Part shown: piece by piece, positions 1 to 15,362 of the stretch
How positions within the stretch are numbered: the stretch's first letter is position 1
How the letters are laid out: every line of letters starts with the position of its first letter
Assembly (NCBI GenBank): GCA_001784285.1
Contig: MFQC01000009.1
Span: 8,828-72,827, forward strand
Source: Candidatus Magasanikbacteria bacterium RIFCSPHIGHO2_02_FULL_48_18
Lineage (GTDB): Bacteria > Patescibacteriota > Patescibacteriia > Magasanikbacterales > UBA922
DNA length: 64,000 nt
Direction: 5' to 3'
Program-made: the position numbers and the translations under genes
Notes under the pieces: model-generated
The model's input: the letters and a program-made list of their open reading frames with translations, nothing else
The model's database searches: none
Told to the model about the DNA's origin: nothing

Positions 1-3000
1 TCCTATAAATCCAAGATATTTTCTTTCTATGCCCTTCATTGCGGCGTCAAATACTTGCTCAGGACTGGTGATATTCTCACCTCTGTCATCTTTCAACACT
101 TTTCCACCCTTCAAAAAAGCGCCTTTCAAAACAACCTGCCCGGCAAAAAGTTCTTGAACCGATGAAGCGGTTTGCCAATCTTTTTTTCCTTTGTTTGGAT
201 CTTCAATTCGAATAATCTTGCCATCCTTATCGGCAAATCCGTCTTTTTTTATTTTTTTAATTTTTCCTTGCCCCTCAAGGACTTGCTGGCCAGCGGACAA
301 CTGAGTAATCGCGTTCCCTTCCGCATCACGCAAAATAATGCCCTGTTCATCATAGTACGAACCCTTTTTTACCGCAGTCATCGCCCCGTATTTATTGTTC
401 AAAAATTCCTCTTGTGTTACCACGGATCCATCTGCATTTTCAATGAGGTGCTCTTTATGTTCAATACCATGAACATTGTTCTCCAATAGCTCGTCGACAC
501 TTGCGGCCTCCCTTTCGCCTCCCTTTCCATCGGGAACCATAAGCACTTTGCCATCCTCACCAACAAATCGCTGTTCTGAATTGAGAACACGCTCGAGCAT
601 CTTAAATTCTCCTTCCGGTCCAAAGGCTCTTTTTGTGGCTTCAAATTCATCCCGTTCTGCCGGGGAAAGACCATTTCTGTATTCTTCATCGGTTTCGTAT
701 CGTTCAATAGCCTGTCCCATGGAGTTAATGGCATCATCAAGATTTGCATTTTCCGCGAGATTACTCAACATGCCATACATGTGTTTTTGCACATCCATGG
801 AAACTCCTTCTTTCCCCTGCATACGCGCCTGCTCTCTATGAAACGCAAGCCGCATCAATGCCGCGCCGCCAAACTCGGCGCGTCCGGCTTCGTCAACGCG
901 GTTTAATGATTCGGCAATACGCTTTGCAGACGCCACAAACGACTGCGCGTAGGTGGCTTTCCCTTGCGCAGGCGCTTCAATAAAGGTGCCTTCCACTTCG
1001 GACTGCGTTTCTCCTTTAACAATGGCCATATTTTCTTCGTGCTCTTCCGCAAATTTTGCCTGTTGAATGGCGCGCGCAAAAACAGACGCGGCGTCATTGC
1101 CTTGAAGAAGCCAGAGATCCAAGTTGCCTTTATCTTTCATTTTTCTAAATTTGTCGAGCGACGACTCAAACACTTTTTCGAGATGCGCATTTTTCATGCC
1201 CTTGACGATGTCCTCGCCGATTTTCGCGCCTATCTCGGCTTCGCCAAGCTGTTCGGCGAGCTTTTTGCCGAGTGGCCCCATCCACACAGCCTCGGTGGCC
1301 TTGCTTTGCGCTTCTTTCAGTTTTTCTTCGGCCACGCGATTGGTTTCATGTTGCACAATATACTGGGCCGCGTTTCGAGAAGCCCTGCTATACACGCCCT
1401 CATCGCGTTTTGGCACCCAAGTGCGTTTGGATCCTTTCCACCGTTCCGGATGATTGATCCCGCTGATAGTGTCCCCGACCGCTTTAACATTTGCGGGGTT
1501 ACTGCGGAATTCTTCAAGACGAGAGTCGCTGTCAATCACCACTTCTTTGCCTCTCTCGTCCTTAATTGTTTTCTTTTGTTTTCTGCGTTTAAATTCTGCT
1601 TTTCCGGCTTCATCCATTCCTTGATACCCATGGTACTCATCGCCATGTTTTTTCTGCATCCACGCGTCAAATTGTTTATTTTGTTGTGCCACAATTTCCG
1701 GGTCCGCCAAAAATTCATCCTCTACCTTTACCTCTTGGTCCGCCCCTATCTGAGTGAATTTCATCCATCCTGACCTCGACTTATCACTGGAAAGAGCGGC
1801 ATACTCCTTATATTCATTAGGATGCTCAACCTCCAGCCATTGTCCAAATTGTTTTAGTTGCTCTGCCGAGACTTCCGGATCCTTCGCAAATTCTTCGTCT
1901 AAGGAACCAAGATCTTTTTGCACCTCAACGGACTTAGTTACTTTTTTCTTTTGTTTGTCAGTGATAAGTTTTGTTTTCCCGGGTTCGTCCGCGGCAGTGT
2001 AGTTCACGTACGCACCCGCATTTTCTTTTTGAAGCCATCGTTCAAATTGTTGTGTTTGTTCAGGGGCAACCATAGAATCTTTTCGAAATTCTTCCAGATG
2101 TTGTTTTTTAAATTCCCATTGTTGGAGCGTATTCATTTCCTTATACCCGTTGTATTGCACCGGATCTTTTGCTTTTATCCAATTTCGAAACTTTTTATCC
2201 TCATCTTCCACAAATTCCGGCGTGTGACGAAACTCGTCAATAAACGAAGGGGCATCTTCTTCCACTTCTTTTTGCTGTTTTACCGTCGTGGTTCGTTTCT
2301 TTTCGCGAAACGCTTTTTTCCCCTCGTCATCCAGCGCGGCATAGCCTTGGTACTCGTCCGCGTGCTCTTTTTCCATCCACCCCTCAAACTCATGATCTTC
2401 CGCGGCGACCACCAATTGGCGCCCTTCTTTGAGAAGGCGTTCTCTGTTTCGATGTTCACGCGACTTTTTGTTTTCCGGACTGCGCATCTGAATCGCGGCC
2501 ATCTCCTGATATTCCGCAAAATTTCTCCGAGCGGTCATGGCATCAAGCCCAACTATACCCACATACTTTTTCTGTTTGATTTTATTCCCATCTTTATCAA
2601 CTTTATCTCTCATTTCATACGCTGTCGTGCCATCCGCGTTCTTTTTTTCCACTCTTTCTTGTTCATATTTAAAGTCGCCTTTTTCATCGTCCCATTCATA
2701 GTCAACCTGGCCCAATCTTTTTAGAATTGGTATTTGGCCAAACACCTTATTAACCAGAGCCGTACCGGCCAAAGACAGAGGGGGTTCATTTTTACTCATG
2801 TCTTTGGCGCGACTGTCTTTTTGCTGTTTTTTTACCGCCTCGACACGATCATCGAGTTTATCCTGATATTCTTCATTATACCCCCCAATAAGAGGGATAT
2901 GACGAATATACTTATTTTGCCGTCGAAACTCATCCAAACGTTTCCCGGCGCGAATCCAACTTCGGCCGCCAATAAAAGGCGCGTTCATAAGGCTCTTCTT

Positions 3001-4125
3001 GCCTTTTTCCAATCCTTTCCCCACCAACCACCGTCCGGCCGCGTACCCGCTCGCGATGGTTGCCACTTTCTTTCCAAAATCAAGGACTCCCCCGACAAAA
3101 CTGCCCCCGACAGCGCCAACTTTTTGGACCGCCGTGAGCCCGACAAACAAAAATGCGATAGCAATAAAAAAATTTGCCATGTTTTCCCACGTGGTCACTT
3201 CGCTTGAGGACACTTTGAGCGTGCCCCCGGGAACGCCTGCCTGCTGAAGCACTTTTTGCGCGTCCGAGCCGTCAATATTGAGTCCCAAATCCGACATGGC
3301 AACGTCGCCCGTTCCAAGCGTGGCAAACGCAAGCCAGAGAAAGAATACCGCGACCGGCGCCACAATCACTTCTTTACCAAACATGGACCACCATTCTTTT
3401 GCGTACTGTTTGGTTTGCGGAATAACGTTCATGATATACGCCATTGGCGACAAAATAATCAACACCCACAATACAATGACCCGGAGTATCATCACAAACA
3501 AATACGCGCCAACAACCGCAAGTCCCATGAGCGCAAAAACAAAGGCCATAACCGCGCCGCCAAAGAGTTTAATGTCAATGCCTCCGGTCATAATATCTTC
3601 ACCGACCACATTGAGAATCGAGTTCATGCGGAGCATTTCAATAAGGTTGCCCCCGGCCGTGTTTTGGATGGCCGTCACAAAGGTCATGGTAAAGATATGC
3701 GCGGCGTCAATAATAAGGCCGGCAATGAGTTTGCTGAAATTGACAAGAAGCGCCGCCAAGATAAAATGCGCAAGCGTTTTTTTCCATTCGTATTGTTCAA
3801 TACCAAGGACCGTGCCAAACGCGATAACAAGCAATACCACCACAAAAAACATATTGGCAACGTCGCGCACCATAAACCAGCCGATGACGACGGTCGGTGT
3901 GTCAACATAGCCATTATATTTTGCGAGTTCGACAAAAAATTTGAAGAAAAACATGGTCAAGCTCATGAGCACAGTGGCAAGCTCAATCAAAATCCACGAC
4001 GCAAAGTGCAAGAGCGCGTCAAAAACGCCGGTTGCGACATCACCCAGCAAATCAAAAATCGCGTTTGCCGGTGTGGCGGTGAAAACCAGCCCGGAGACAA
4101 CAAAAAATAAGAAGATCGGCGTCAT
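1..4125 (-). CDS. TrbL/VirB6-like polytopic membrane protein with long charged C-terminal tail (partial, runs off the left edge; at least 1375 aa)
   Basis: Absent from the ORF track, consistent with no in-window stop. Manual spot translation from ATG 4125 (alternative GTG 4176) is open at every point checked, including the window edge, and gives MTPIFLFFVVSGLVFTATPANA...GWFMVRDVANMFFVVVLLVIAFGTVLGIEQYEWKKTLAHFILAALLVNFSKLIAGLIID, a motif typical of Patescibacteria VirB6/TrbL-like proteins. The long + strand ORFs 172/964/1918/2734/3256 are its antisense shadows. Confidence 0.8.
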   Translation of the reverse strand, partial: MTPIFLFFVVSGLVFTATPANAIFDLLGDVATGVFDALLHFASWILIELATVLMSLTMFFFKFFVELAKYNGYVDTPTVVIGWFMVRDVANMFFVVVLLVIAFGTVLGIEQYEWKKTLAHFILAALLVNFSKLIAGLIIDAAHIFTMTFVTAIQNTAGGNLIEMLRMNSILNVVGEDIMTGGIDIKLFGGAVMAFVFALMGLAVVGAYLFVMILRVIVLWVLIILSPMAYIMNVIPQTKQYAKEWWSMFGKEVIVAPVAVFFLWLAFATLGTGDVAMSDLGLNIDGSDAQKVLQQAGVPGGTLKVSSSEVTTWENMANFFIAIAFLFVGLTAVQKVGAVGGSFVGGVLDFGKKVATIASGYAAGRWLVGKGLEKGKKSLMNAPFIGGRSWIRAGKRLDEFRRQNKYIRHIPLIGGYNEEYQDKLDDRVEAVKKQQKDSRAKDMSKNEPPLSLAGTALVNKVFGQIPILKRLGQVDYEWDDEKGDFKYEQERVEKKNADGTTAYEMRDKVDKDGNKIKQKKYVGIVGLDAMTARRNFAEYQEMAAIQMRSPENKKSREHRNRERLLKEGRQLVVAAEDHEFEGWMEKEHADEYQGYAALDDEGKKAFREKKRTTTVKQQKEVEEDAPSFIDEFRHTPEFVEDEDKKFRNWIKAKDPVQYNGYKEMNTLQQWEFKKQHLEEFRKDSMVAPEQTQQFERWLQKENAGAYVNYTAADEPGKTKLITDKQKKKVTKSVEVQKDLGSLDEEFAKDPEVSAEQLKQFGQWLEVEHPNEYKEYAALSSDKSRSGWMKFTQIGADQEVKVEDEFLADPEIVAQQNKQFDAWMQKKHGDEYHGYQGMDEAGKAEFKRRKQKKTIKDERGKEVVIDSDSRLEEFRSNPANVKAVGDTISGINHPERWKGSKRTWVPKRDEGVYSRASRNAAQYIVQHETNRVAEEKLKEAQSKATEAVWMGPLGKKLAEQLGEAEIGAKIGEDIVKGMKNAHLEKVFESSLDKFRKMKDKGNLDLWLLQGNDAASVFARAIQQAKFAEEHEENMAIVKGETQSEVEGTFIEAPAQGKATYAQSFVASAKRIAESLNRVDEAGRAEFGGAALMRLAFHREQARMQGKEGVSMDVQKHMYGMLSNLAENANLDDAINSMGQAIERYETDEEYRNGLSPAERDEFEATKRAFGPEGEFKMLERVLNSEQRFVGEDGKVLMVPDGKGGEREAASVDELLENNVHGIEHKEHLIENADGSVVTQEEFLNNKYGAMTAVKKGSYYDEQGIILRDAEGNAITQLSAGQQVLEGQGKIKKIKKDGFADKDGKIIRIEDPNKGKKDWQTASSVQELFAGQVVLKGAFLKGGKVLKDDRGENITSPEQVFDAAMKGIERKYLGFIG

Positions 4126-4315
4126 CCATTTTTTTGCTCGGAAGAGCGACGTTATTTTTTTTCCAACATGCTTCACAGCCAAGAAATCATGGAGTGATCA
4201 ATTGTGAAGAAGTATAGCATAAAAAAGAAAAAAAATGGAGAAAAAATCGTTATTTTGGGGATAGTATTTCATAAACACGTTATCCACTTTTTATCCTTGA
4301 CAAACCTTTGTCACC

Positions 4316-4344: not shown

Positions 4345-4399
4345 AGAATTGGAGAATTGTGTTTATTTTTTCGCTTGAAAAAAGCAAAAAGCTCTTTAA

Positions 4400-4462
4400 A
4401 AAAACAAAAAGGCTTGCACACACAAGCCTCCTTCGGTGGTGGACCGTGGGGGAATTGAACCC
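4400..4462. repeat. 63-bp exact direct repeat A, copy 1 (terminator plus tRNA-like 3' end)
   Basis: Identical to 4735-4797; identity ends just beyond the T-loop. Confidence 0.95.
4401..4429 (-). terminator. intrinsic terminator downstream of tRNA-like RNA 1
   Basis: Minus strand AGGCTTG-TGTGTG-CAAGCCT followed by TTTTGTTTT. Confidence 0.8.
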
Positions 4463-4509
4463 CAAGAGTGAGGATGGTAAGCCTACTCGTGCACCTGCAC
4501 ACACGGCCC
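4437..4509 (-). tRNA. atypical tRNA-like RNA 1 (73 nt; anticodon ambiguous, TAC/Val or ACC/Gly; G3.U70)
   Basis: GGGCCGT GT GTGC-AGGT-GCAC GAGTAGG-CTTACCAT-CCTCACTC T TGGGG-TTCAATT-CCCCC ACGGTCC ACCA: 7-bp acceptor stem, 4-nt D-loop, 8-nt anticodon loop with a bulged stem, canonical T-loop, encoded CCA. Confidence 0.55.
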
Positions 4510-4525
4510 ATAGTCCACCAAAAAA

Positions 4526-4534
4526 AGTATACCA
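4526..4534 (-). promoter_or_regulatory. extended -10 promoter for tRNA-like RNA 1
   Basis: TG-G-TATACT, then 6 nt, then GGTGGAC leader; same spacing as in cassette 2. Confidence 0.55.
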
Positions 4535-4535
4535 T

Positions 4536-4577
4536 AAAAGAAAATCCTCAACAAAGAATTTATGTTGAGGACTTTCT
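4536..4577 (-). terminator. intrinsic terminator of sRNA 1
   Basis: AGAAAGTCCTCAACA-TAAATTCTT-TGTTGAGGATTTTCT-TTT. Confidence 0.7.
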
Positions 4578-4631
4578 CCGGGATTCACCCGACCGAATAT
4601 GCAGTTTTATACGAAGTAGGTTTACCATCCT
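4536..4631 (-). ncRNA. putative ~95-nt small RNA complementary to tRNA-like RNA 1
   Basis: Bounded by TTGACA-17-TATCCT and a 15-bp terminator hairpin. Its predicted 5' end AGGAUGGUAAACCUACU pairs 16/17 with the anticodon arm AGUAGGCUUACCAUCCU. Confidence 0.55.
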
Positions 4632-4637
4632 AAAACA

Positions 4638-4666
4638 AGGATACCCCATTTTAAAAACCCTGTCAA
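4638..4666 (-). promoter_or_regulatory. sigma70 promoter of sRNA 1
   Basis: TTGACA(4666-4661)-17 nt-TATCCT(4643-4638); the same -35/-10 pair occurs upstream of nusA. Confidence 0.65.
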
Positions 4667-4709
4667 GTGGAAAAATGATAGATCACTCCATCCAAACAAA
4701 CCAATTGAG

Positions 4710-4738
4710 ATAGAGTAATCCATCGTTCTTTCACAAAA
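4710..4738. repeat. 29-bp exact direct repeat B, copy 1
   Basis: ATAGAGTAATCCATCGTTCTTTCACAAAA, identical to 5017-5045. Confidence 0.95.
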
Positions 4739-4797
4739 ACAAAAAGGCTTGCACACACAAGCCTCCTTCGGTGGTGGACCGTGGGGGAATTGAACCC
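4735..4797. repeat. 63-bp exact direct repeat A, copy 2
   Basis: Identical to 4400-4462 (offset 335 bp); contains the terminator and 3' end of tRNA-like RNA 2. Confidence 0.95.
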
Positions 4798-4847
4798 GTT
4801 CCACTGTGTGTCAAGTACAGCATGCTCACCAGATACACTACTGGCCC
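4772..4847 (-). tRNA. atypical/chimeric tRNA-like RNA 2 (76 nt; probably GAC/Val, alternatively TGA; G3.U70)
   Basis: GGGCCAG TA GTGT-ATCTGGTGA-GCAT G CTGT-ACTTGACAC-ACAG TGGA ACGGG-TTCAATT-CCCCC ACGGTCC ACCA. U8, D-loop GG, T-loop and CCA are present. Acceptor pairs 6-7 and the two outer T-stem pairs are mismatched. Confidence 0.5.
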
Positions 4848-4866
4848 TTACTAGTCCACCAAATTT

Positions 4867-4875
4867 ATATTAACA
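4867..4875 (-). promoter_or_regulatory. extended -10 promoter for tRNA-like RNA 2
   Basis: TG-T-TAATAT, then 6 nt, then GGTGGAC leader. Confidence 0.5.
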
Positions 4876-4946
4876 TAAAAATCTCCCCGGAGGAAGATCT
4901 TTACGTTGACACACAGTTTCAACCAGTAGAAATCTAGTTGCTGTAC
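4876..4946 (-). ncRNA. putative ~70-nt small RNA complementary to tRNA-like RNA 2
   Basis: GUACAGCA-ACUAGAU-UU-CUACUGG-UUGAA-ACUGUGUGUCAA-CGUA followed by a terminator hairpin (AAAGATCTTCC-TCCG-GGGAGATTTTT). Each block complements part of tRNA-like RNA 2. Confidence 0.55.
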
Positions 4947-4952
4947 AAAAAT

Positions 4953-4982
4953 ACAATATCACATATCTGGAAACTTTGTCAA
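4953..4982 (-). promoter_or_regulatory. sigma70 promoter of sRNA 2
   Basis: TTGACA(4982-4977)-18 nt-TATTGT(4958-4953) with an extended -10 TG. Confidence 0.55.
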
Positions 4983-5016
4983 GCGAAAGCCCGATGGTTT
5001 ACCCGATTAAAATACA

Positions 5017-5045
5017 ATAGAGTAATCCATCGTTCTTTCACAAAA
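5017..5045. repeat. 29-bp exact direct repeat B, copy 2
   Basis: Identical to 4710-4738. Confidence 0.95.
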
Positions 5046-5194
5046 TGACAATTCTCTCCATAATGGACGAGAACTGTCTTACAAATACAGCGCGTGTGAG
5101 GCGGAAATTGCTCTGCTTCCGGAAATACCCGGGAGAGAGCCATGAAAGCCTAATAATATTGCGAACTCCTAAAAGCAACACGGCGCCTGCCGAA

Positions 5195-5308: not shown

Positions 5309-6043
5309 ATGGCACGTTTCATCGCCCTCGCCGCCACCCTGGCGGCGTGCTTCTTCCTCGCGTGCGAGGAGGAAGGGACTGGTCCCACCGACGGGACCAC
5401 TGCGACGACAACGGGCTCCGCCGCAGGCGAGCCCACCACCCCCAGCAACGACGGCAACGACTGCACCGACAACAACCCGTGCACCGAGGAGACGTGCGAC
5501 GGCGACGTTTGCACGACCCATACTGAGTCGTGCAACGACAACGGATGCACCGAGGAATGGTGCAACCAATGGGGGTGCTCCAGTTGCACCAACTGGAGCA
5601 GTGGCGCCTCGGGGTGCACAGGCACCCCGGGCGGCCCTACTGCCCCCATTGTCGACCCCGACCCCCCTGGCGACGACCCCGTCCCCCCGCCGGAGGTCGA
5701 CTGCTCGGCCTGGACAACTCTCCTTTCCGGCACGTTCTACGAGCCGGAGCTGATCGGGGAGTTCGAAGTCCCTGGTTTTATTCAGTACCTCGAACCGGAC
5801 TTCGAGGGGATCGTCGGCGCGGGCTACGGCCTGTGCCGGTCGTCTGTTGATGACGCAATCGGCGTCGTCGACAACGTGTGGGGTGTGCTCGATGGAGCAG
5901 GAAAGAACATCGCCTGTGGACCGTTCCCGGGCGATAGTGTGCTCCACTTCGAGCCGATCGACAGCGACTGCATCAAAATCGGAGGGACTGCCCTTACAAA
6001 CTGGAGCATCCCCAACGATTTTTTGATTGCATGCCGACTGTGA
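5309..6043 (+). CDS. GC-rich Cys-rich putative lipoprotein (244 aa)
   Basis: AGGAGG at 5297-5302 before ATG 5309; signal peptide with lipobox FFLAC; Thr/Gly linker; DCTDNNPCTEETC repeats; Pro-rich linker. Confidence 0.8.
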   Translation: MARFIALAATLAACFFLACEEEGTGPTDGTTATTTGSAAGEPTTPSNDGNDCTDNNPCTEETCDGDVCTTHTESCNDNGCTEEWCNQWGCSSCTNWSSGASGCTGTPGGPTAPIVDPDPPGDDPVPPPEVDCSAWTTLLSGTFYEPELIGEFEVPGFIQYLEPDFEGIVGAGYGLCRSSVDDAIGVVDNVWGVLDGAGKNIACGPFPGDSVLHFEPIDSDCIKIGGTALTNWSIPNDFLIACRL

Positions 6044-6326: not shown

Positions 6327-9300
6327 TTACTTCTGCTCCGGCACCACAATAATAACACCATGATAATAGGTCCATCGTTCTTTGTTATAATTATCCTCAC
6401 ACTCTTTATTTCCTCCGGCATTAAAATCATTATACAACCCCTCCTCACTCGGAATCATATCCTTATTCTTCCCGCCCGGAATCCATGCCGGGCCGCCGGT
6501 CGCGGAACTCTTTGACGCGTTGCACCAACCCCAGTTGTCAAGGACCTGTACCCGCGGGCGGTACGCGCACACTTTGGACGGTTCATAGCCAACCAAATCC
6601 ACGACGCCTTTTTTCTGCCACTCGGTGAGCGCGGAAAAATCCACATTCGCGCTTCCTGAAGAACATTCATACGTATACTCGGCCTTAAACGGCTTGTCGA
6701 CGCACGCGCGGTCGCTGTTGCCAAAGCGCGGTTTATTGTATGAATCAGTGTATGTTTGTTGGTACGATGGAAGATCTTTTTCCTTATAACACAAGAGGTC
6801 GTCAAATCCGAGAGCATGCGGACAATCGTCTTCTTTGTCGTACGCTTTGCAGGTCATAAGGTCGGGAAGCTGTTCTGAGCCGCCGCCCCAACACACCCCA
6901 ATATCGCCTTCGGAGAATTCGCAGAACGGTTTGTAGTTTTCGTAATACCCATGCGTTTTTTCGTTCGTAATATAACCGGTTGCCGAATCGTCCCAATCAA
7001 TCATAATGCGCCGGATGGGCATATGATTATCGTCGGCCGCGACAAAAAATTCGGCTGTGGCTTTGAACGTTTTTTGGGCTATATGCATGGTCGGTTCCGG
7101 CGCGTTGTTTGGCGCTTCGTCCGGATCATTATTGGGATCACGATCATAATTATACTTTGTGCCATTTTTTCCTGTAACAGTAAAATTGTGTTTGTCACCC
7201 GCAGTACATGGTCCATGTTCTCCATAACAACGGTATGGATTGAGCGAATAGACAACAGGCGGGCGATTATTGGTTGGTTTGTTATACTCTGATCCTTCAT
7301 CCCATGCCGTTTTACTCTCAAACTCATCCGGCTTCTCGCCCGTTTTGCGCATTTTTATAGAAAATGTTTTTGCAAACAATTGAGCGAGCCGACTCTTGCC
7401 AATATAATCCGGATCATAACTAGCATAATATGACCCAATGCCAAATTCCATATCACCGGGAATCGTTAAACCATCGCCCAAACTACTGCATCGGAAATCA
7501 TTGGTACCACTCCAATCCGGGATTGTTTGCCACATGTAATCCCATAAATAATCTGAACCACTTGGACCAATATTATCATCCGCCACGGGTTCGGCATTCA
7601 GTTCATTCGTACCCGCATAGATATTTTTTCCAAACAATTTTCCGCATGCGTATGGAACGCCCTGGTTATCATTAAAAGTATATTTGCGTAAGATACTATC
7701 GGTTTCCAAATCATCTTCAATTAAATCGAGAGACCCATATGGTGGATTTTCTGTTTCAAACCATTTTACCTCATCACTGAAAAATTTTGGTTCGCCTACA
7801 TCCCAGTGGGGTGATGGCGGATAAATTTGAGATGCCTGCCACACACGATTGGTCCACGCCTTATTCGTCGGTTGATCCGTATCAATCTTGGTGTCATCGT
7901 AGACGCTCGCAAATTCAGTACATCGGGGGTTGAGCTCAACCAGAACAGAGAGAAGCGCATGTCTTCCTACAGCATGATTTTTAACATCGTCATCATCATT
8001 TTTATATCTCTCGCTATATTTATACCACAAATTACCCCCGTCATAAGAGAGTTTTCCATCTCCATTATTGAATCGAATCATCCACACATTGTATGGCGCT
8101 TTCGCTTGTGTTTCTATAGGCACATTATACAAACTTTCTTCAATTATACTACGATATATTGTGTTTCCATCATCTTCTCCACTTTGGAAAATAGCGATAC
8201 CATAGACATGCTTTCCGTCATTAGAATCCCCTGTATACGCATCTTTGTTTATTCCAAAAAATTGCACAGCCTGAAATTTCTTTGTTTTGCCGAGAGCAAA
8301 TTCTTTCACACTAAAAGCATACGTTTCATCTTTTGGCGCATCCTCATGAAGAGGAGACTGGGGATTGTCTATTTTCATTGCTTGGAGATTTTCAAAATCT
8401 ATTTCAAGCCCTGGATAAAAATGAGGTAAATTGAGTTCATTATAAGCACCCGGATCTCCTGCCAACATCATCGGGCCCATATGAAATTTCTTGACATCTT
8501 GTTCATACAGATCCCCCTGCATTCGATAATCCTTGCCAAAGGTACCAATAATATACTTGGCAATAGGAGTCTTTCCTTTTCCATCTTCATCCCAAGCCTT
8601 TGTCTCTTCTACGTCGGTATATATATAACCGGAAGCATCCGTGACCGGAATTTTTTCGCTCAGCATGGACCACCAGCCCGGGCTGTCAATCCATAATACT
8701 TCCGTATTGGGACTTCCTTTCCCATCGTTAATGCCATGCCAACCATACAATTTCATAAACGTATATATTTTTTTCTGGTACGCTAAAGACTGCAATTTCA
8801 AATCGCTTCCGAGCTCGCCGGTAGTCGCCCCCTTTGGAATATTCATGGGTGGGAGATCGGCGATATTATCATATTGCGTACCGCCATCTGACCACCATGT
8901 AACCCAAAGAGGAGGCGCATTCAAAAGTGAAGTCCAGCGCTCATCGCCAGTATCCCCCGCAAGATCGTCTATTTCTGGACCCAAAATATCTTCCAATTCA
9001 ATATATACCGGAGCATCGCTATCATCATAGGTAAGAGAATTAGAATGAAAAATTTTATAATACATATCCTTTGAATAAGTTAACCCAGAGCTAGGATAAG
9101 CATAATTTATTGCTTTCAACATTTCGACACCACTCAACACCATACTTTGGTTATAGGCCGGCGCGGCGGCGGCGACCGTGCAATACACCTGGCCCTTGCC
9201 ATTATTGGAATCCAATGCCACATCATAGCCGGTTGTCGGATCGTTGTTATAAATATCAACACCGGTCACATTGACGTCCAACGGCAACCATGTTTGACAT

Positions 9301-12300
9301 GCATAGAGGCCGGTGCCACCTCCCAATGGGCGGCTGAGATCGCGCTCCAGACAAAAACCGCTTGTTCCCACGTGCATGGATTTGTTGGTATAAGGCGATT
9401 CTTTGCAAATCAATCCGTCGCCGCACTGACCGTCGTCGGTTTGGCATGGCTTGCCTATATTTCCCGCGTCTTCCACTTCGCCCGACCCCGAAAGGCCCGA
9501 ATCCGCCGGCAATTGACACGTTCTCGGACCGTGGCTTGCTTGCCCGAGCGGCCAATACCCAACATTGCCATCCGCATATTCGTTAACGAGATAACTGCAC
9601 GAACAGTCGCCCTTTTGGCAGATATTCGCTTTGTCGTATCCTTCTATTTTTTGCGTATATAATTTGAAAAACGAAGGCGACGGCGTGTTTCCTTCCACGT
9701 CTTTTTGTAGATCTTTTGCAAAATTGACCGGAAACGGACTGTCTTCTTCCGGATAGACTTTACAGCTTGCCGGGATAAGATCATCCTTGGTAAATTCATC
9801 CTTTTCACCCAAGCCCGAAATTGGGTAGACGCATTCGCCGCTGTAACACTTTCCTTTGCTGTCCTCGCCGCATAAGGCTCCATCATTTTTCGGCACTACA
9901 TTGCCAGAGACTGTTTTAAAACAAGAACTTTGATCCGGATTGGACGACGAATCGGCATAAAATTTGTACGCGAGGTAGCTGGTTTTCCCGGTCGTGCCGC
10001 TGTCAATGCCAATATAGGTAAAATCATTGATTTGGTATCGGTTAAAAAGCGAGTAGCCCGTATACTCCGGATCGCCATACCACGTCGTGTCGCGGGCAAT
10101 GTATTTTTCTTCAGTCAAAAACTTGGACTCATGCGGGTAATCGCTCTGTTCCACCCAATCCACGCAATCTTTGCCATCTCGTTCGGTGCATGCCCGATAA
10201 TCTTCGCACACGTCAAGCGTCAGTCCCGTTTCTTGCTGTTGTTTTGTCTGCGACGACCGGCAGGCCAGCCACTCGGCGCATACGCGATCGCGATTCACTT
10301 TCAAAATGATATTGCTGTCCCCGCCGGACACGCTACTTGCTTGTTTTGGCGAGACCAAATTGTCATTATTTTTTTCGCTGTCCGTATACGTCGCCTGGGC
10401 AAGATACGGACGGGTTGACTCGTCCACCTTATTCAACAACACGCACCCTTCTTTTAAGCTCACCTTGCCGCCGCATTCGTCAATACGATTGGTAATAGTA
10501 CTGTTGAAAATAACGGGATATGGGGTGCCGTTCGGATATTTGGCCGTTTTGTCAACCGGATCAACCAACTCGGTACAGCCATTAAATTGTTCCGGGCACT
10601 GCCCCACCAATCCATCATATTGAAATGCGCCATTGGAATAAATACCAAACGATGTGTCGGCAAGAATATACCCCGGATAACACGGAATTTTATTTTTATT
10701 TTGGCACATGCCGGAAGCGCATTCTTGATCGGCAGTACACAATGATCCGTTGGTACATTCGCCCACATCTTTCTTTACCCACCCGGAACGGGTAATACCG
10801 GTCTTGTCGACAAAAGACTCCTGATAGACGCATTGCGCGTTGCCATTTTTGAGCGGATCTTTAAAGAAAGACACCGTGTTTCCGGAATTGAACTGGCCGC
10901 ATCCGAGCAAATCCTCGCGGCACAGCACGCCTTCCGGACCAAGATATTTGTCCGGATTGTTTTTGATGTACTCTTTCTCAAAAGAATATGATCCCGCCGC
11001 AGTAAACCCGTCCGGGACCGCCTGTTCGCGCAATGCGATTTTTTCACATCCCAAAAATGCCTGATCGCACACGGTATTTTTGGTTTTGGTAAGGAAAATG
11101 GGGTCGTTTTCGGGCGTATCCGCGCCAATCAGCACGCTCGAATCATCCACAAACAAAATATCCGGCGAGGTATTGGTGCTGTTTTGTTGCACGGCAAGAA
11201 ATGTCACAAACGGCTGCAACTCAAATTTCCCAAAAGAATACGTTGCATCGGGCAATGCTATGGGGCCGGGAATATAACATATTTTTGAACCGGTTGGAGG
11301 CGTGCAGGTATGGTTGGCTCCATTCAAATTAACCGTGCAGGTATTCCCAGACGAGGTATTTTTATAGCACGCAATGTTGTAGACGATCCGGTCTTCCGCG
11401 CCATCCATGGCAATGGTATTTTGGGTGTCATATAGCGCGGTACATCCGACTGCTTCTGGCCGGCAGAGCGACGCAAAACCGGTCGCGTACCACAGCGTAT
11501 TTTGCGTATCCGTGTACATTTGACATCCCAACGCTTCGCCCGGCAACCCGTCGGTCGGGTCGCTGTCGCACGCTATAGGCGCGTTTGCACTCACCAATCC
11601 GCCCTCATACTCTATCGTGCGTTGCCATGAATTTTTGATAAGATGATATTGATCCACGAGACGCGTCAGGCGCACATTGTCCAGAAAATATCCTCCCGGT
11701 GTACCTTCGCGTTTGAATACCAAAGAAACCGGATCGGTTGTGTTGCCGGTAAATTGAACAGGACCGATATGATACAATTGCCAGGACTCCTGGAGCTCGA
11801 TTTTATTTTCCTTGTTCAAGAGAGGATCAAAGGTAAAATACCAGCTCGTCTCTGTCTTGCCATTTTGCGACAAGTTGATGGACAATTGTTGCCCCGCGAC
11901 GCCGCGCGCCCAGAACGAAAGCTCGTACCAATTGGCGGCATCCTCTGCATTGCCGCTTTGGATGGTTCCGGTTGCAATGATCCGTTCCACTTTTTCGGTA
12001 TTGACCAATAACGAATACAGCCCGACTTGGATAGATTCGGCCGCGACGGAAATGCTTCCGGCGGCGATATCGACTTTTTTCCAATCTTTTTTGGCATCGT
12101 TCAGGGCGTTTGCGTCGTCTCCGGACGGTTCAAAAATATCAAGAAATACCTGTTCGACATTGTTTCCCGAATTGCCTACATACAAACGGCACCCGCTGGC
12201 TTCTTTGGGACAAGCATTTGCCTGGCCGGGCGTATTGATGGTGTTATACACGCACGATCCTCCGGAGGCCGGATTATTTTCGTCGGGTTTGTATGCTCCG

Positions 12301-15300
12301 CCGTTCGCGCACACCATACAGCTCGCGGTACTCTCTGCCCACAATCCTTTTCGTTCGGCGCACAATTGTTTGGACGTATCGAGCGACAAAAGATCGTCTT
12401 TGACCAAGGTTACACTGGTTTTGCGCAATGGATGGCACAATTCATCGACCAGCGCGACCTCCGACAATACGCGATAAAACACCTGCCCGCTTTTATCATA
12501 GAGCGCACGACAATCAAGGCTTGCCGCGTCAATACTCCCGGGATTATTCACTAATATGCTATAGGTATCTTCATTGCACACGGCCTGTAAATTTTTGAGC
12601 GCCATATAACTCGTGTCCGCGTACGCGGGGGATCCTTTCGGGTAAGCGGCCGTGAGCGCATTTTTTACCACTGTATCTGTGACTAAATCAAACATCTTCG
12701 TGAGATACGAATTTTTGGTATCGTCGATCTGGAGCAGGCGATGCGTCCGCAAGACATACCCCTTCTGCACCGACCCTTCCCACGAATAAAATATTTTTTC
12801 ATTATCATCGGCCGGTTTTTCACAATAGGTGAGATCCGTGTAATATTCCAAACCTTCGCCGCCTTTTTCCACAGTATCGATATTGGTAAATTCATCACAG
12901 CCTTCATACGCAACCGTACAGGAGAGTCCCTGTTCTTTCATGAGATCTTGCGCGTATGTCGGCACAAAATACAATGGAAATTGCGCCCCCTCAAAATTGG
13001 TCTCCGCTTGCTTGTACGCGTCATACCCGACACAGCTCAGATCGCACTGATTATTTCCAATAAGCGCGGGAACCGCAGGTCCGCCCGCAAGCGGGGTATA
13101 GGCATCGCACCCAACTTCTTCGGCAACGCACGCTCCCGCAAAGTTGCCGCATTCGGGATTGCCGGAAAGAAAATTCAAATCCGCTTTTTTCTTTGGGTAT
13201 TCAATCGCCTCGGTTCCCGCATTGGTATCATAACATCCCAAATAGTCCGGCGCTTTTTTGAGATACAGGGTATTCTCCGGGCTCGTATCTTTCACATACG
13301 CGTTTGCCGCCGCGTCGAATACGCGAGGATAAAAGGCCGAACAGCCCTCATTGTCTCCGGTACACGTTTGCGAAGCGATTTTTGCATTGAAATAAAGTGT
13401 TGGATTTCTCCCCGCTTTTTTATACTCTTTCCATATTCCCGAATCGAGCATGCCCGGATATACCCATGCTTCATTGACCTGTTCCGCCCCATACGCGGAA
13501 CACCCCACGGATTGGGCCGAACACTCCCCGTACTCAAGCGTTCGCGTGAGGTAGGATGACACTGTGTTCGTTCCCGCGTTGACAAATGTTTGACAGGAAG
13601 TAAATGGCAAAGGACACGAATCTCCCGGTATTCTCCAGGTATTTTCTTCCTTTGTGCAGTATCCATAGAGTTGCGGCGCCTCGCACACGCTGTTTGGCCC
13701 TTCTGAAATGCATGTAGAAAAATCAAGACATTCTTCCATGCGCTTTGCGCCATCGCTCGTCAGCAATTGATCGCTATACCCATAGGCCATACAGCGGGTT
13801 TCCGGAACTCGAATCACCCAGTTCGGATCAATAAGATGACAATATGGATATTCCGCGCTCGGCGCTCCGCTTGGGTGGCACTGATCAAATCCTTTGACAA
13901 CCTCTTCAAGCTTCCATGGGTTGTCGGACGGCGACTTGAGCGCGGCAATTTCAAACCCAATGGGAAGAATGCGCGCTTTTCGTATTTTTTGGATATTGGA
14001 ATAACAATAGGCCTCGCGGAAACAATTGCGGTCCCGATTTTGCAATTCTCGTTTGGGAGAAATCAACTCCCAGTCGCCATGCAAAAACGACCCTTTCGTG
14101 TCAGCGAGCGCTTCGCCAATGGTCATGGCCCGGCCGGTCTTTGCCTGCGCGATGGCGTTTGCAAGCCCTTGTTCCATGACACAATTATTGATGCCAACCG
14201 GAGTATTGCCCTCCGGACACGCGGTAAATTGCTGAACGATATTAAAATTTTCTATCTGAACAGGCGTCTTGGTCAATAAAAAGCCAAAGACCTGTTGTGC
14301 AATGCTCTTTTTACTTGCTCCGCTTGGCGATTGGGAATACGGGTTGACCACCGAATCCGGATTTGCCGCGTCTTCTCCTCCTCCGCCTGAGGAAGGAAAC
14401 AATCCTCCGGTCAATAATTGCTCCAACAACTGCGTCGTCAAGGTATTCAAAAATACCGACGCGGCATACGGAAGTATTTGAATGGTTGGCGCGGCGTAAA
14501 TAGCACTAATCTGCCCGGCAGTAATTTCTTTTGATTTCAATCCAGTCAATTCCTTCGATTCTTCTTTGACCAGTTGTGCCGGTGAAATAGTTGTTCCGGA
14601 AATAAGTTCTTTCACTGCCTTAAAGCCGTCTCCTTCCATCCGCTCTTGGAGAGCGCCCAATTCCTGCTGGAAACTTTTCTGCCGCACCTGGCCCAAAGCG
14701 CCGAGCGAAACTCCAAAATCCGTACTGTCCGCGTTGAGAGAGGCGCTAAATGATTCGGCAATAAATTTTTGTCCGTAGGGACCGAATTTTTCTTCAAACG
14801 CTTCCGGGCTATACGCATTTTTGAGATCTTGCCAGGAACAATCCAGCCCTCCACCCATAAATTTTTGACTTAATCCCAACTGCAGACTGATTTGCAACGC
14901 TAAATTTGGCTGACAAATATCTATCCCAAATGCTTTTTCCCCCAACGTCTGGATGGATTGCGCGGCGGCATCAAGCGCCACATTTTCAAAATAGGTGGCC
15001 GCCCCTTCCTGAAAGACCAACGGCTCTTCGCCAGCCGCTTTGGTGGAAAGCCATGTCGCGGCGTCGTACGCCAACTTATTTAAAAAATAGGATACACCTT
15101 CAATGAGGGCGCTTAATCCCCCAGCAAGGAGACTCTGCCACATGTTGAAATCCAATTTTTTTTCCGCTTTTTCGGCCAGCGCTCTGGCTTCATTTCTGGC
15201 TTGAATGGCTTCGCGTTGGGCAGTCGCAGGCGCGTCAGTCCATTGTGCAAAGACCATTGTCGGAAAAAAAGAAAAAAGAAAAAGACAGAGACAAAAAATT

Positions 15301-15362
15301 GGCTTCATTTTTGAAGAAAAAAAATGGAAATAATGTTGTTTTCTTGAAAAGAAAGGAATCAT
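6327..15362 (-). CDS. giant (3011 aa) secreted Cys-rich surface protein with a carbohydrate-binding-like module
   Basis: Long ORF; N-terminal signal peptide; helical N-terminal region; many Cys-rich modules; WYELSFWARG...YFLDNVRL resembles a galactose-binding/CBM4-9-like fold. Confidence 0.85.
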   Translation of the reverse strand: MIPFFSRKQHYFHFFSSKMKPIFCLCLFLFSFFPTMVFAQWTDAPATAQREAIQARNEARALAEKAEKKLDFNMWQSLLAGGLSALIEGVSYFLNKLAYDAATWLSTKAAGEEPLVFQEGAATYFENVALDAAAQSIQTLGEKAFGIDICQPNLALQISLQLGLSQKFMGGGLDCSWQDLKNAYSPEAFEEKFGPYGQKFIAESFSASLNADSTDFGVSLGALGQVRQKSFQQELGALQERMEGDGFKAVKELISGTTISPAQLVKEESKELTGLKSKEITAGQISAIYAAPTIQILPYAASVFLNTLTTQLLEQLLTGGLFPSSGGGGEDAANPDSVVNPYSQSPSGASKKSIAQQVFGFLLTKTPVQIENFNIVQQFTACPEGNTPVGINNCVMEQGLANAIAQAKTGRAMTIGEALADTKGSFLHGDWELISPKRELQNRDRNCFREAYCYSNIQKIRKARILPIGFEIAALKSPSDNPWKLEEVVKGFDQCHPSGAPSAEYPYCHLIDPNWVIRVPETRCMAYGYSDQLLTSDGAKRMEECLDFSTCISEGPNSVCEAPQLYGYCTKEENTWRIPGDSCPLPFTSCQTFVNAGTNTVSSYLTRTLEYGECSAQSVGCSAYGAEQVNEAWVYPGMLDSGIWKEYKKAGRNPTLYFNAKIASQTCTGDNEGCSAFYPRVFDAAANAYVKDTSPENTLYLKKAPDYLGCYDTNAGTEAIEYPKKKADLNFLSGNPECGNFAGACVAEEVGCDAYTPLAGGPAVPALIGNNQCDLSCVGYDAYKQAETNFEGAQFPLYFVPTYAQDLMKEQGLSCTVAYEGCDEFTNIDTVEKGGEGLEYYTDLTYCEKPADDNEKIFYSWEGSVQKGYVLRTHRLLQIDDTKNSYLTKMFDLVTDTVVKNALTAAYPKGSPAYADTSYMALKNLQAVCNEDTYSILVNNPGSIDAASLDCRALYDKSGQVFYRVLSEVALVDELCHPLRKTSVTLVKDDLLSLDTSKQLCAERKGLWAESTASCMVCANGGAYKPDENNPASGGSCVYNTINTPGQANACPKEASGCRLYVGNSGNNVEQVFLDIFEPSGDDANALNDAKKDWKKVDIAAGSISVAAESIQVGLYSLLVNTEKVERIIATGTIQSGNAEDAANWYELSFWARGVAGQQLSINLSQNGKTETSWYFTFDPLLNKENKIELQESWQLYHIGPVQFTGNTTDPVSLVFKREGTPGGYFLDNVRLTRLVDQYHLIKNSWQRTIEYEGGLVSANAPIACDSDPTDGLPGEALGCQMYTDTQNTLWYATGFASLCRPEAVGCTALYDTQNTIAMDGAEDRIVYNIACYKNTSSGNTCTVNLNGANHTCTPPTGSKICYIPGPIALPDATYSFGKFELQPFVTFLAVQQNSTNTSPDILFVDDSSVLIGADTPENDPIFLTKTKNTVCDQAFLGCEKIALREQAVPDGFTAAGSYSFEKEYIKNNPDKYLGPEGVLCREDLLGCGQFNSGNTVSFFKDPLKNGNAQCVYQESFVDKTGITRSGWVKKDVGECTNGSLCTADQECASGMCQNKNKIPCYPGYILADTSFGIYSNGAFQYDGLVGQCPEQFNGCTELVDPVDKTAKYPNGTPYPVIFNSTITNRIDECGGKVSLKEGCVLLNKVDESTRPYLAQATYTDSEKNNDNLVSPKQASSVSGGDSNIILKVNRDRVCAEWLACRSSQTKQQQETGLTLDVCEDYRACTERDGKDCVDWVEQSDYPHESKFLTEEKYIARDTTWYGDPEYTGYSLFNRYQINDFTYIGIDSGTTGKTSYLAYKFYADSSSNPDQSSCFKTVSGNVVPKNDGALCGEDSKGKCYSGECVYPISGLGEKDEFTKDDLIPASCKVYPEEDSPFPVNFAKDLQKDVEGNTPSPSFFKLYTQKIEGYDKANICQKGDCSCSYLVNEYADGNVGYWPLGQASHGPRTCQLPADSGLSGSGEVEDAGNIGKPCQTDDGQCGDGLICKESPYTNKSMHVGTSGFCLERDLSRPLGGGTGLYACQTWLPLDVNVTGVDIYNNDPTTGYDVALDSNNGKGQVYCTVAAAAPAYNQSMVLSGVEMLKAINYAYPSSGLTYSKDMYYKIFHSNSLTYDDSDAPVYIELEDILGPEIDDLAGDTGDERWTSLLNAPPLWVTWWSDGGTQYDNIADLPPMNIPKGATTGELGSDLKLQSLAYQKKIYTFMKLYGWHGINDGKGSPNTEVLWIDSPGWWSMLSEKIPVTDASGYIYTDVEETKAWDEDGKGKTPIAKYIIGTFGKDYRMQGDLYEQDVKKFHMGPMMLAGDPGAYNELNLPHFYPGLEIDFENLQAMKIDNPQSPLHEDAPKDETYAFSVKEFALGKTKKFQAVQFFGINKDAYTGDSNDGKHVYGIAIFQSGEDDGNTIYRSIIEESLYNVPIETQAKAPYNVWMIRFNNGDGKLSYDGGNLWYKYSERYKNDDDDVKNHAVGRHALLSVLVELNPRCTEFASVYDDTKIDTDQPTNKAWTNRVWQASQIYPPSPHWDVGEPKFFSDEVKWFETENPPYGSLDLIEDDLETDSILRKYTFNDNQGVPYACGKLFGKNIYAGTNELNAEPVADDNIGPSGSDYLWDYMWQTIPDWSGTNDFRCSSLGDGLTIPGDMEFGIGSYYASYDPDYIGKSRLAQLFAKTFSIKMRKTGEKPDEFESKTAWDEGSEYNKPTNNRPPVVYSLNPYRCYGEHGPCTAGDKHNFTVTGKNGTKYNYDRDPNNDPDEAPNNAPEPTMHIAQKTFKATAEFFVAADDNHMPIRRIMIDWDDSATGYITNEKTHGYYENYKPFCEFSEGDIGVCWGGGSEQLPDLMTCKAYDKEDDCPHALGFDDLLCYKEKDLPSYQQTYTDSYNKPRFGNSDRACVDKPFKAEYTYECSSGSANVDFSALTEWQKKGVVDLVGYEPSKVCAYRPRVQVLDNWGWCNASKSSATGGPAWIPGGKNKDMIPSEEGLYNDFNAGGNKECEDNYNKERWTYYHGVIIVVPEQK

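Follow-up and report, generated by a model that had tools for sequence, protein, structure and literature searches.

Tandem tRNA-like genes with circularly permuted antisense partners: a candidate RNA-only toxin-antitoxin family in Patescibacteria

The window analysed here, a 64,000-nucleotide stretch of the 1.10 Mb Candidatus Magasanikbacteria genome (G000, contig C9, positions 8828-72827) of an ultra-small groundwater bacterium, contains two tandem cassettes, each with a tRNA-like gene and a predicted small RNA (sRNA) that is antisense to it in circularly permuted blocks. On balance, these pairs are probably RNA-only toxin-antitoxin (TA) modules, in which a miscoding or frameshifting Ala-tRNA would be silenced by a dedicated anti-tRNA. 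The co-evolving tRNA/anti-tRNA family itself stands even should toxicity fail.

Two cassettes in the window and six pairs in the host genome

The cassette pair sits in an AT-rich gap between the end (4182) of a gene of more than 1390 codons and a GC-rich open reading frame (ORF) at 5309-6043. On the minus strand, to which the cassette coordinates below refer, each cassette runs in the order TTGACA promoter, sRNA, terminator, extended -10 box, short leader, tRNA-like gene and terminator. From these consensus elements two separate transcripts are predicted, with a strong promoter and a terminator for the sRNA and an extended -10 box for the tRNA-like gene. In cassette 1, a predicted sigma-70 promoter (4638..4666; TTGACA, 17 nt spacer, TATCCT) would start transcription near 4631. 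The predicted sRNA 1, or anti-tRNA 1 (4536..4631, ~96 nt), comprises a 57-nt antisense region and a terminator hairpin, the latter belonging to a predicted intrinsic terminator (4536..4577; hairpin 4539-4577, U-rich tail). There follow a predicted extended -10 promoter box (TG-n-TATACT, 4526..4534, from the sequence), a 5' leader (GGUGG..., 4510..4519) that can pair with the 3' CCACC and so hide the CCA end, the 73-nt tRNA-like RNA 1 (4437..4509) and its predicted terminator (4406..4433). tRNA-like RNA 1 folds as a cloverleaf (z -2.9) with an 8-bp acceptor stem, G3·U70, A73, a 4-bp T-stem, an encoded CCA, no U8 and an 8-nt anticodon loop (4474-4481; U-ACC-A). The unit is not an assembly artefact, as contigs of the other DNA runs X7, X11 and X13 cover 4433-4691 with zero differing letters.

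Pairing between the two RNAs of cassette 1 was compared with dinucleotide shuffles on a doubled target, which permits permuted pairing. The four complementary blocks that the initial annotation had proposed were found where it placed them, opposite the T-arm (4578-4587), the acceptor 5' strand (4591-4595), the D-arm (4597-4604) and the anticodon arm (4615-4631). Its description of the differences as mostly A-for-G or C-for-T holds for six of the seven inside these blocks; the seventh, at 4621 within the 17-nt anticodon block, is T-for-C and gives an A·C mismatch on the minus strand. The anti-anticodon block does lie at the predicted 5' end of the sRNA, with the start at 4631, 7 nt past the -10 box, and for both sRNAs the predicted start is the first antisense base. 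The complete duplex reached -64.5 kcal/mol against -34.0±3.9 for the shuffles (n=1000, z -7.8, 0/1000 as good). The 5' seed block (4615..4631, inverted repeat I12) is complementary to the anticodon loop and arm at 16 of 17 positions, the exception being the A·C pair. Pairing outside it was also better than shuffled, the remaining 40 nt giving z -4.8 (0/1000). The same 40 nt gave only z -0.9 on a linear target, which indicates that the permuted order matters. The middle blocks (4591..4613, opposite the D-arm and acceptor 5' strand) gave z -3.7 (0/1000 shuffles); the permuted 3' block (4575..4587, opposite the variable region, T-stem 5' strand and T-loop) was not significant by itself (z -1.4, 107/1000 shuffles as good) and reached z -4.8 together with the middle blocks. 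A neutral alignment at this locus contains 41 Watson-Crick, 6 G·U, 2 A·C and 4 transversion positions. The G·U bias at locus 1 alone (6 G·U to 2 A·C) is thus weak and not significant, and the strand asymmetry is modest (-64.1 for the minus-strand pair, -59.0 for the plus-strand pair).

Cassette 2 comprises a predicted promoter (4953..4982), the predicted sRNA 2 or anti-tRNA 2 (4877..4946, with a terminator at 4877-4902), an extended -10 box with a CCA-masking leader (4848..4875, from sequence and fold), tRNA-like RNA 2 (4772..4847) and a predicted terminator (4741..4768). tRNA-like RNA 2 is of the 7/5 type with G3·U70, and its 9-nt loop presents UGA or, one base over, GAC. sRNA 2 is again permuted antisense to its neighbour, and the duplex reached -53.0 compared with -31.1±3.9 for shuffles (0/1000 as good). 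Through a 68-nt direct repeat (D1, 4730-4797 and 4395-4462), tRNA-like RNA 2 has the 3' end and terminator of tRNA-like RNA 1, a pattern suggestive of gene conversion or unequal recombination between the cassettes. Since the copied 3' end leaves five acceptor and three T-stem pairs, tRNA-like RNA 2 is probably crippled.

Several further features of this neighbourhood were recorded. A contig of run X8 jumps from 4399 to 4735 via the 68-nt repeat and omits exactly cassette 1, both tRNA and sRNA; the skip is absent from seven other runs and represents either a real deletion or a collapsed assembly. A 29-bp perfect direct repeat (4710-4738 and 5017-5045) flanks cassette 2. A GYTCTTT-type motif, which we take to resemble the boxA antiterminator, occurs on the strand opposite the cassettes at ~4392-4404, 4725-4738 and 5032-5045 and elsewhere in the host genome (C8:166851; C11:2270, 4245 and 4596; others), and it marks many borders of GC-rich DNA, with at least 60% GC on one side in 11 of its 27 genome matches. 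The plus-strand ORF at 5309..6043 (GC 63-64%) encodes a Cys-rich, Cys-repeat, lipoprotein-like product with no Pfam or PADLOC hit, and is foreign-looking DNA that the cassettes may stabilise. Giant ORFs lie on the minus strand at 6327-15362 (3011 aa, Cys-rich) and 1-4182 (over 1394 aa, N-terminal multi-pass membrane region) and encode giant proteins of a kind typical for Patescibacteria. An Rfam scan of the window gave nothing at gathering score, and on 4350-5080 it gave only weak tRNA-Sec and tRNA matches (E 0.03 and 0.065).

The host genome holds six tRNA-like/sRNA pairs, the four beyond the window loci being at C8:166889 (an intact 7/5 paralogue, G000:C8:166889-166964), C4:19022, C11:2164 and C11:4494. 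Flanking antisense was found for 6/6 elements at p≤0.005 and for 2/44 ordinary tRNAs at p≤0.01. Along each row and each column of the 6×6 matrix of duplex energies the cognate pair came out on top (z -3.8 to -7.8), and all six sRNAs favoured their own partner over any ordinary host tRNA by 11-22 kcal/mol; for sRNA 1, the best ordinary tRNA reached -42.0. The anti-anticodon is the least paired part of the sRNAs (0.8-0.9 unpaired). Normal genes for tRNA-Ala (UGC, GGC, CGC), Ser, Gly, Val and Asp are present as well, so the tRNA-like genes are extras and do not signal an altered code. In the 7/5 type, the acceptor and the beginning of the D-stem agree with the host tRNA-Ala(UGC), judged from sequence its likely source. 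AlaRS, RNase P RNA and RNase III are all encoded. All four cassette sites in this genome lie ≤1.5 kb from DNA of at least 60% GC, compared with 13% of the genome and 7/44 ordinary tRNAs. A stretch complementary to the 5' end of tRNA-Thr(GGU) was also seen just downstream of that gene in GC-rich DNA (G000:C3:259257-259400, p<0.005); it has no promoter layout and is probably due to chance. ARAGORN reported no tRNA-Asn, a single CAU tRNA and a tRNA-Ile(UAU) in this genome, and the missing genes may hold introns or be unassembled.

A family of tRNA-like RNAs with private antisense partners

Searches with sequence patterns gave matches in 21/107 family genomes and, at the class level, in 13/401 genomes; the 13 matches outside the host genome comprised seven elements and six ordinary tRNA-Ala genes. 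With a GTDB scan that covered 26 of 64 parts and a metagenome scan that gave 117 loci, 203 distinct hits were collected, and 25 were excluded because the acceptor paired poorly, G3·U70 was absent or the length fell outside 70-78 nt. The retained hits comprised 112 with G3·U70 that were called as something other than Ala, and 66 with a tRNA-Ala call. For the 8/4 class, a covariance model gave hits in 26/107 family genomes and 8/151 phylum genomes, with seven copies in one genome (G033). Presence is patchy (32-33/107 family genomes), with up to 6-7 diverged copies per genome. Named taxa with pattern hits include Magasanikbacteria, Uhrbacteria, Peribacteria, Peregrinibacteria and Saccharibacteria, and some hits are in records deposited under the title 'uncultured Gammaproteobacteria'. 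Four viral scans with the pattern gave eight loci, one of which (L346, a viral contig) has the tRNA and antisense layout, with a 7/5 G3·U70 tRNA-like gene at 1500-1574 on the minus strand and a promoter and antisense segment downstream. BLAST against a plasmid set and the GenBank phage set gave no match.

The antisense partner is close to constant. Where both flanks were available, an antisense segment at p≤0.02 lay ≤260 nt away from 96/108 non-Ala G3·U70 tRNAs and from 1/56 ordinary tRNA-Ala genes, and at p≤0.005 the counts were 85/108 and 0/56. The single Ala-called hit with an antisense segment (L263) has an element-type body. The covariance model provided 40 further hits for examination; 38 were non-canonical, and 34 of these had an antisense neighbour. 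Genes without a detected partner are therefore few (12/108 at p≤0.02, 4/38 among the model-only hits). Five ordinary-looking tRNA-Ala(UGC) genes (L090, L224, L228, L255 and L277) carry the same CCA-masking leader with no clear antisense partner and are possibly ancestors or tamed forms.

The bodies of the tRNA-like RNAs are 70-78 nt long with a variable region of ~5 nt, and fall into an 8/4 type (44/112, including tRNA-like RNA 1) and a 7/5 type (the other 68). In the 8/4 class, 16 of 22 pairs change on both sides (39 sequences). The GG of the D-loop and A37 never vary, while conservation is at least 90% for U33 and for C36; none of these was part of the search pattern. The search patterns themselves demanded G3·U70, A73 and the leader; the model-only hits test these features, although the model also favours them, and G3·U70 and A73 were kept in 38/38 of the non-canonical ones while pairs 4:69 and 5:68 vary. 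CCA was encoded in 26 of these 38 and missing in 12. In the CCA-less variants compensation by the leader is partial, the own 3' end ranking among the top five in 6/12. About ten of the model hits have a weak leader seal or none. A -10-like box precedes the leader in 92/112 elements compared with 10/66 ordinary tRNA-Ala genes. The anticodons differ widely and are almost never an in-frame Ala anticodon. The 8/4 class (44/112), which is missing U8, has 8-nt loops, most commonly U-ACC, U-AUC, U-GUC and C-GUC. One 7/5 class has a 9-nt loop on a 4-bp stem, reading UGA or, one base over, GAC, with the 31·39 pair open and C at canonical position 37. The remaining elements have normal 7-nt loops with GCG, GCA or GUC. 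The absence of U8 in the 8/4 class, and the open 31·39 pair with C37 in the 9-nt-loop class, suggest that both may decode poorly. ARAGORN labels the elements as Ser, Arg, Cys, Gly or Asp tRNAs or overlooks them, an annotation that is corrected here. G3·U70 is reported to be sufficient for AlaRS, which ignores the anticodon (PMC11415595), and 8/4 allo-tRNAs with G3·U70 inserted Ala in E. coli (PMC5389517). Judged by sequence, the tRNA-like RNA has the make-up of a molecule that takes part in translation, and of one that would introduce errors.

The initial annotation had suggested that pairing between the two RNAs was selected and that an inverted duplication of DNA does not account for it; the family supports this suggestion more than locus 1 does. 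We aligned 91 pairs without any G·U bonus; as kin are not independent, the p-values overstate. A tRNA G stood opposite U at 212/1283 positions compared with 90/908 for tRNA C opposite A, and a tRNA U opposite G at 85/1165 compared with 24/940 for tRNA A opposite C. G·U exceeded A·C in 68 elements and fell below it in 12, so that the G·U bias extends across homologs. The tRNA-sense duplex was the stronger one in 65/91 pairs, and the cognate partner was the best in 69/91 and among the top five in 90/91. The 5' end of the sRNA maps to tRNA positions 29-43 in 88/91 pairs, and the last 20 nt of the tRNA are targeted in only 3/91. The permuted 3' block was significant alone in 49/54 pairs of the 7/5 type and 20/37 of the 8/4 type; since a 'wrap' flag (89/91) also fires on noise, the permutation rests on the block-deletion and separate-block tests. 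The positions of the 5' ends and the permuted block together describe an anti-cloverleaf cut at the anticodon, whose unpaired end carries the anti-anticodon. It is an established logic of antisense RNAs that a free RNA end enters a loop without the topological penalty incurred when two loops pair. Open anti-loops are partly automatic for any cloverleaf complement. The sRNA gene is upstream in 78/91 pairs and downstream in 13/91, a variation that disfavours a local hairpin relic. A perfect TTGACA box precedes 79/91 sRNAs, partly imposed by a TTGAC filter, a terminator-like hairpin separates the sRNA from the tRNA-like gene in 59/78 upstream cases, and only 21/91 sRNAs hold an ATG frame of at least 10 codons. 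By a rough test, the final antisense block extends into the foot of the terminator stem that ends the same sRNA in 26/34 pairs of the 8/4 type compared with 10/46 of the 7/5 type (e.g. L003:4380-4440, L019, L027, L031), and feedback on termination is possible. Collectively, the sequences show cloverleaf covariation, retention of G3·U70 and A73, partner-specific permuted complementarity and a G·U bias.

The gene neighbourhoods share little. No protein family is conserved beside the cassettes among 147 neighbouring ORFs (about half of the loci), which include ribosomal, chaperone and Cys-repeat surface proteins, AbiEii, HEPN and one transposase; no transposase or integrase consistently adjoins the cassettes, and there is no integrase among the 147. 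For 28 neighbours, the PADLOC hits were limited to PDC-S01 and to weak matches for Csa3 and AbiEii. In relatives, only 15/42 loci are close to DNA with a GC content of 58% or more, and many loci are between housekeeping genes. The same sites hold a cassette across genera, between rpsA and ftsH (L019/L041) and beside dus (L006/L026), and at these sites, as between O-antigen ligase and groES (L024/L161), the anticodons or even the folds differ.

A proposed mechanism and its alternatives

We infer transcription of both genes, charging and decoding by the tRNA-like RNA, its toxicity and a differential decay of the pair. In the proposed mechanism, the primary tRNA transcript would be inert, with its leader paired to the RCCA end required by RNase P. 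RNase P pairs with RCCA and needs a single-stranded leader (PMC11143913), so the leader seal would be expected to slow maturation. The free anti-anticodon end of the sRNA would dock on the anticodon loop and the sRNA would then zip up with the tRNA over three quarters of its length from the 5' end, while the 3' ~20 nt would stay unpaired. This duplex would be neither matured nor used, and RNase III would probably clear it. Should sRNA synthesis halt, through cassette loss, phage shut-off or starvation, the stable precursor would mature and be charged by AlaRS, and Ala at Gly, Asp, Val/Ser, Arg or Cys codons, or four-base reading (GGUA for tRNA-like RNA 1), would arrest the cell. Toxicity of the leftover tRNA after cassette loss would, we propose, make the cassette selfish and stabilise nearby acquired DNA. 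The TA module is the best fit to a harmful-looking tRNA with a near-constant private antisense, a strong promoter, an inert precursor, copies that do not cross-react and a patchy spread. Several points stand against it: tRNA-like RNA 2 looks crippled yet retains sRNA 2, the 8/4 and 9-nt-loop classes may decode poorly, several allo-tRNAs were inactive in E. coli (PMC5389517), some hits have no encoded CCA or a weak leader seal, GC-rich DNA is near only 15/42 loci of relatives, and no transposase or integrase consistently adjoins the cassettes.

Two alternatives accept the antisense pair and differ on what the tRNA-like RNA does. It could be a non-decoding, Ala-marked mimic that is stored or switched off by the sRNA and serves as bait or competitor for AlaRS, EF-Tu or anticodon nucleases, or as a processed regulator of the C4/CI kind. 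The loss of U8, the odd loops and the 12 of 38 elements without CCA are compatible with such a role, inactive allo-tRNAs are known in E. coli (PMC5389517), and the overlap of the last block with the terminator in the 8/4 type would let the tRNA-like RNA act on transcription. We nevertheless rate the mimic as rather unlikely: U33, C36 and A37 are conserved around a varying anticodon, as for decoding, there is no Rfam C4 match, and harmlessness would not explain a near-obligatory private antisense partner. The six tRNA-like RNAs of the host also have no second multi-block target in the genome, by a 14-mer scan so weak that it missed even the partner of tRNA-like RNA 1. Alternatively, the sRNA could set the level of a useful recoding tRNA, whereby the proteome is diversified or frameshifted surface-protein genes are read. 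The anatomy would be the same as for a TA module, many neighbours are Cys-repeat surface-type genes, cassettes are kept at the same sites across genera, and dedicated mistranslating tRNAs (tRNA-ProX) exist in Streptomyces (PMC11415595). However, anticodons at the same site differ between genomes, presence is patchy, the promoters look constitutive and there is no conserved regulator, and we consider a regulated switch unlikely.

The remaining alternatives concern the antisense segment itself. That the 'sRNA' is a leader or trailer masking the tRNA in cis within one transcript seems improbable for the family as a whole, although no terminator lies between the tRNA and the antisense segment in 10/13 downstream-type loci, where a joined, self-masked transcript is therefore likely, and read-through is possible at other loci. 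Against a single transcript stand the hairpins between the genes at most upstream-type loci, the -10 box that most tRNA-like genes have of their own, a spacing that varies from 93 to 181 nt, the reversible gene order and the -35/-10 boxes of the downstream antisense segments. Were the roles reversed, the sRNA would be a toxin of the CreT kind that ties up a host tRNA, and the tRNA-like RNA would serve as its sponge; tRNA-sequestering RNA toxins provide a precedent (PMC11610964; PMC8501985). This arrangement is very improbable, and a host-tRNA-sequestering sRNA was rejected, as each of the six pairs best with its own partner by the margin given above. Finally, the locus could be a relic of a DNA inverted duplication, or the scar of a tmRNA or tRNA attachment site, with no function as RNA. 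tRNA 3' ends are common integration sites and the 68-nt direct repeat involves a 3' end. Such a relic is hardly credible in view of the permuted block order, the promoters and terminators, the co-variation of sRNAs with about 100 different partners and the lack of an integrase among the 147 neighbours; the G·U bias across 91 pairs led us to reject a DNA hairpin relic. A tmRNA or its attachment site was likewise rejected, as the host tmRNA (G000:C11:23030-23428) has ends different from those of the elements.

Relation to known systems

If the TA module is correct, it is a protein-free addiction or abortive-defence module of ~250 nt. It would explain the persistence in genomes of lethal-looking allo-type tRNAs, a question standing since 2017, and would offer genetic-code expansion ~100 tRNA bodies from nature, of the 8/4 and expanded-loop kinds, together with the off switches that fit them. 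More tentatively, and with real doubt, we suggest that selfish two-RNA modules are widespread in Patescibacteria, in which the toxin is a natural Ala-tRNA with a four-base anticodon that frameshifts the proteome and the antitoxin is a circularly permuted anti-tRNA. These would be the first TA systems with a tRNA toxin and the first dedicated antisense repressors of a tRNA, and would amount to a natural collection of tRNAs that decode quadruplets, every one with an off switch to itself. We know of no gene that silences one tRNA by base-pairing and of no TA system with a tRNA as toxin. A literature search that covered mainly openly available papers gave no description of such a tRNA/anti-tRNA pair.

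The closest relatives of the tRNA-like RNA are the allo-tRNAs (PMC5389517), which share the 8/4 acceptor branch, a long D-stem closed by a small loop, anticodons that do not fit the charging identity (GCG and GUC in both) and a G3·U70 subgroup that in allo-tRNAs is charged with Ala. Allo-tRNAs of Ser identity killed E. coli cells upon induction, and allo-tRNAs are reported near TA loci (PMC5389517). The 12-bp branch (8/4 or 9/3) that distinguishes allo-tRNAs is present in tRNA-like RNA 1 and the 44/112 elements of its class, and the mismatch between anticodon and identity is present as well. The elements lack the long tRNA-Sec/Ser-like variable arm and carry A73 (38/38 model-only hits) where allo-tRNAs mostly have G73 or U73. 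Unlike allo-tRNAs, they often have 8- or 9-nt loops, a 7/5 sister class, a CCA-masking leader and Patescibacteria hosts. The word 'antisense' occurs 0 times in the text and one supplement file of the allo-tRNA paper (PMC5389517), and it is unmentioned in the portion of PMC7609411 that our search covered. The allo-tRNAs may be toxins of this sort too, with a partner that has escaped notice.

An 8-nt anticodon loop with U33-N4-A37 is also known from the +1 frameshift suppressors sufD and sufA6 and from engineered qtRNAs, which are lab mutants or designs; the elements with this loop are natural, recurrent and paired with a silencing RNA. As in type VIII TA systems, the cassettes consist of two adjacent small RNA genes (by predicted promoters and terminators) and no protein, with cognate antitoxin specificity in computed duplexes, and a working pair would by definition fall under type VIII, where neither part has a known counterpart. 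SdsR and RyeA, a type VIII pair, overlap on opposite strands, unlike the elements, whose partner is non-overlapping, imperfect, permuted and on the same strand. CreT sequesters a tRNA and CreA acts via Cas proteins (PMC11610964, PMC8501985), whereas the putative toxin here is the tRNA itself. The cassettes have no repeat-flanked guide with adjacent Cas genes as in CreTA, there being no Cas family among the 147 neighbouring ORFs (Pfam), and the sRNA pairs with the RNA itself.

The C4 antisense RNA of P1/P7 and the CI RNA of P4 are tRNA-like processed RNAs with a complementary site nearby. In contrast to these, the elements have no Rfam match, conserve Ala identity and anticodon-loop features, and have a complementary segment that ends in its own terminator and leads no conserved operon. 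In hok/sok, the toxin transcript is kept inert by a fold-back of 5' on 3' end and a free antisense end docks on a U-turn loop. The elements likewise combine a free-end antisense to a loop, a 5'-3'-sealed transcript and several non-cross-reacting copies per genome. Type I systems of the hok/sok type, as defined in PMC11610964, make a protein toxin from the targeted mRNA, whereas the target here is a covarying 70-78-nt cloverleaf, a pre-tRNA. In architecture the element resembles an allo-tRNA; should it be toxic, its mode of action would be that of a type VIII or hok/sok-type TA pair.
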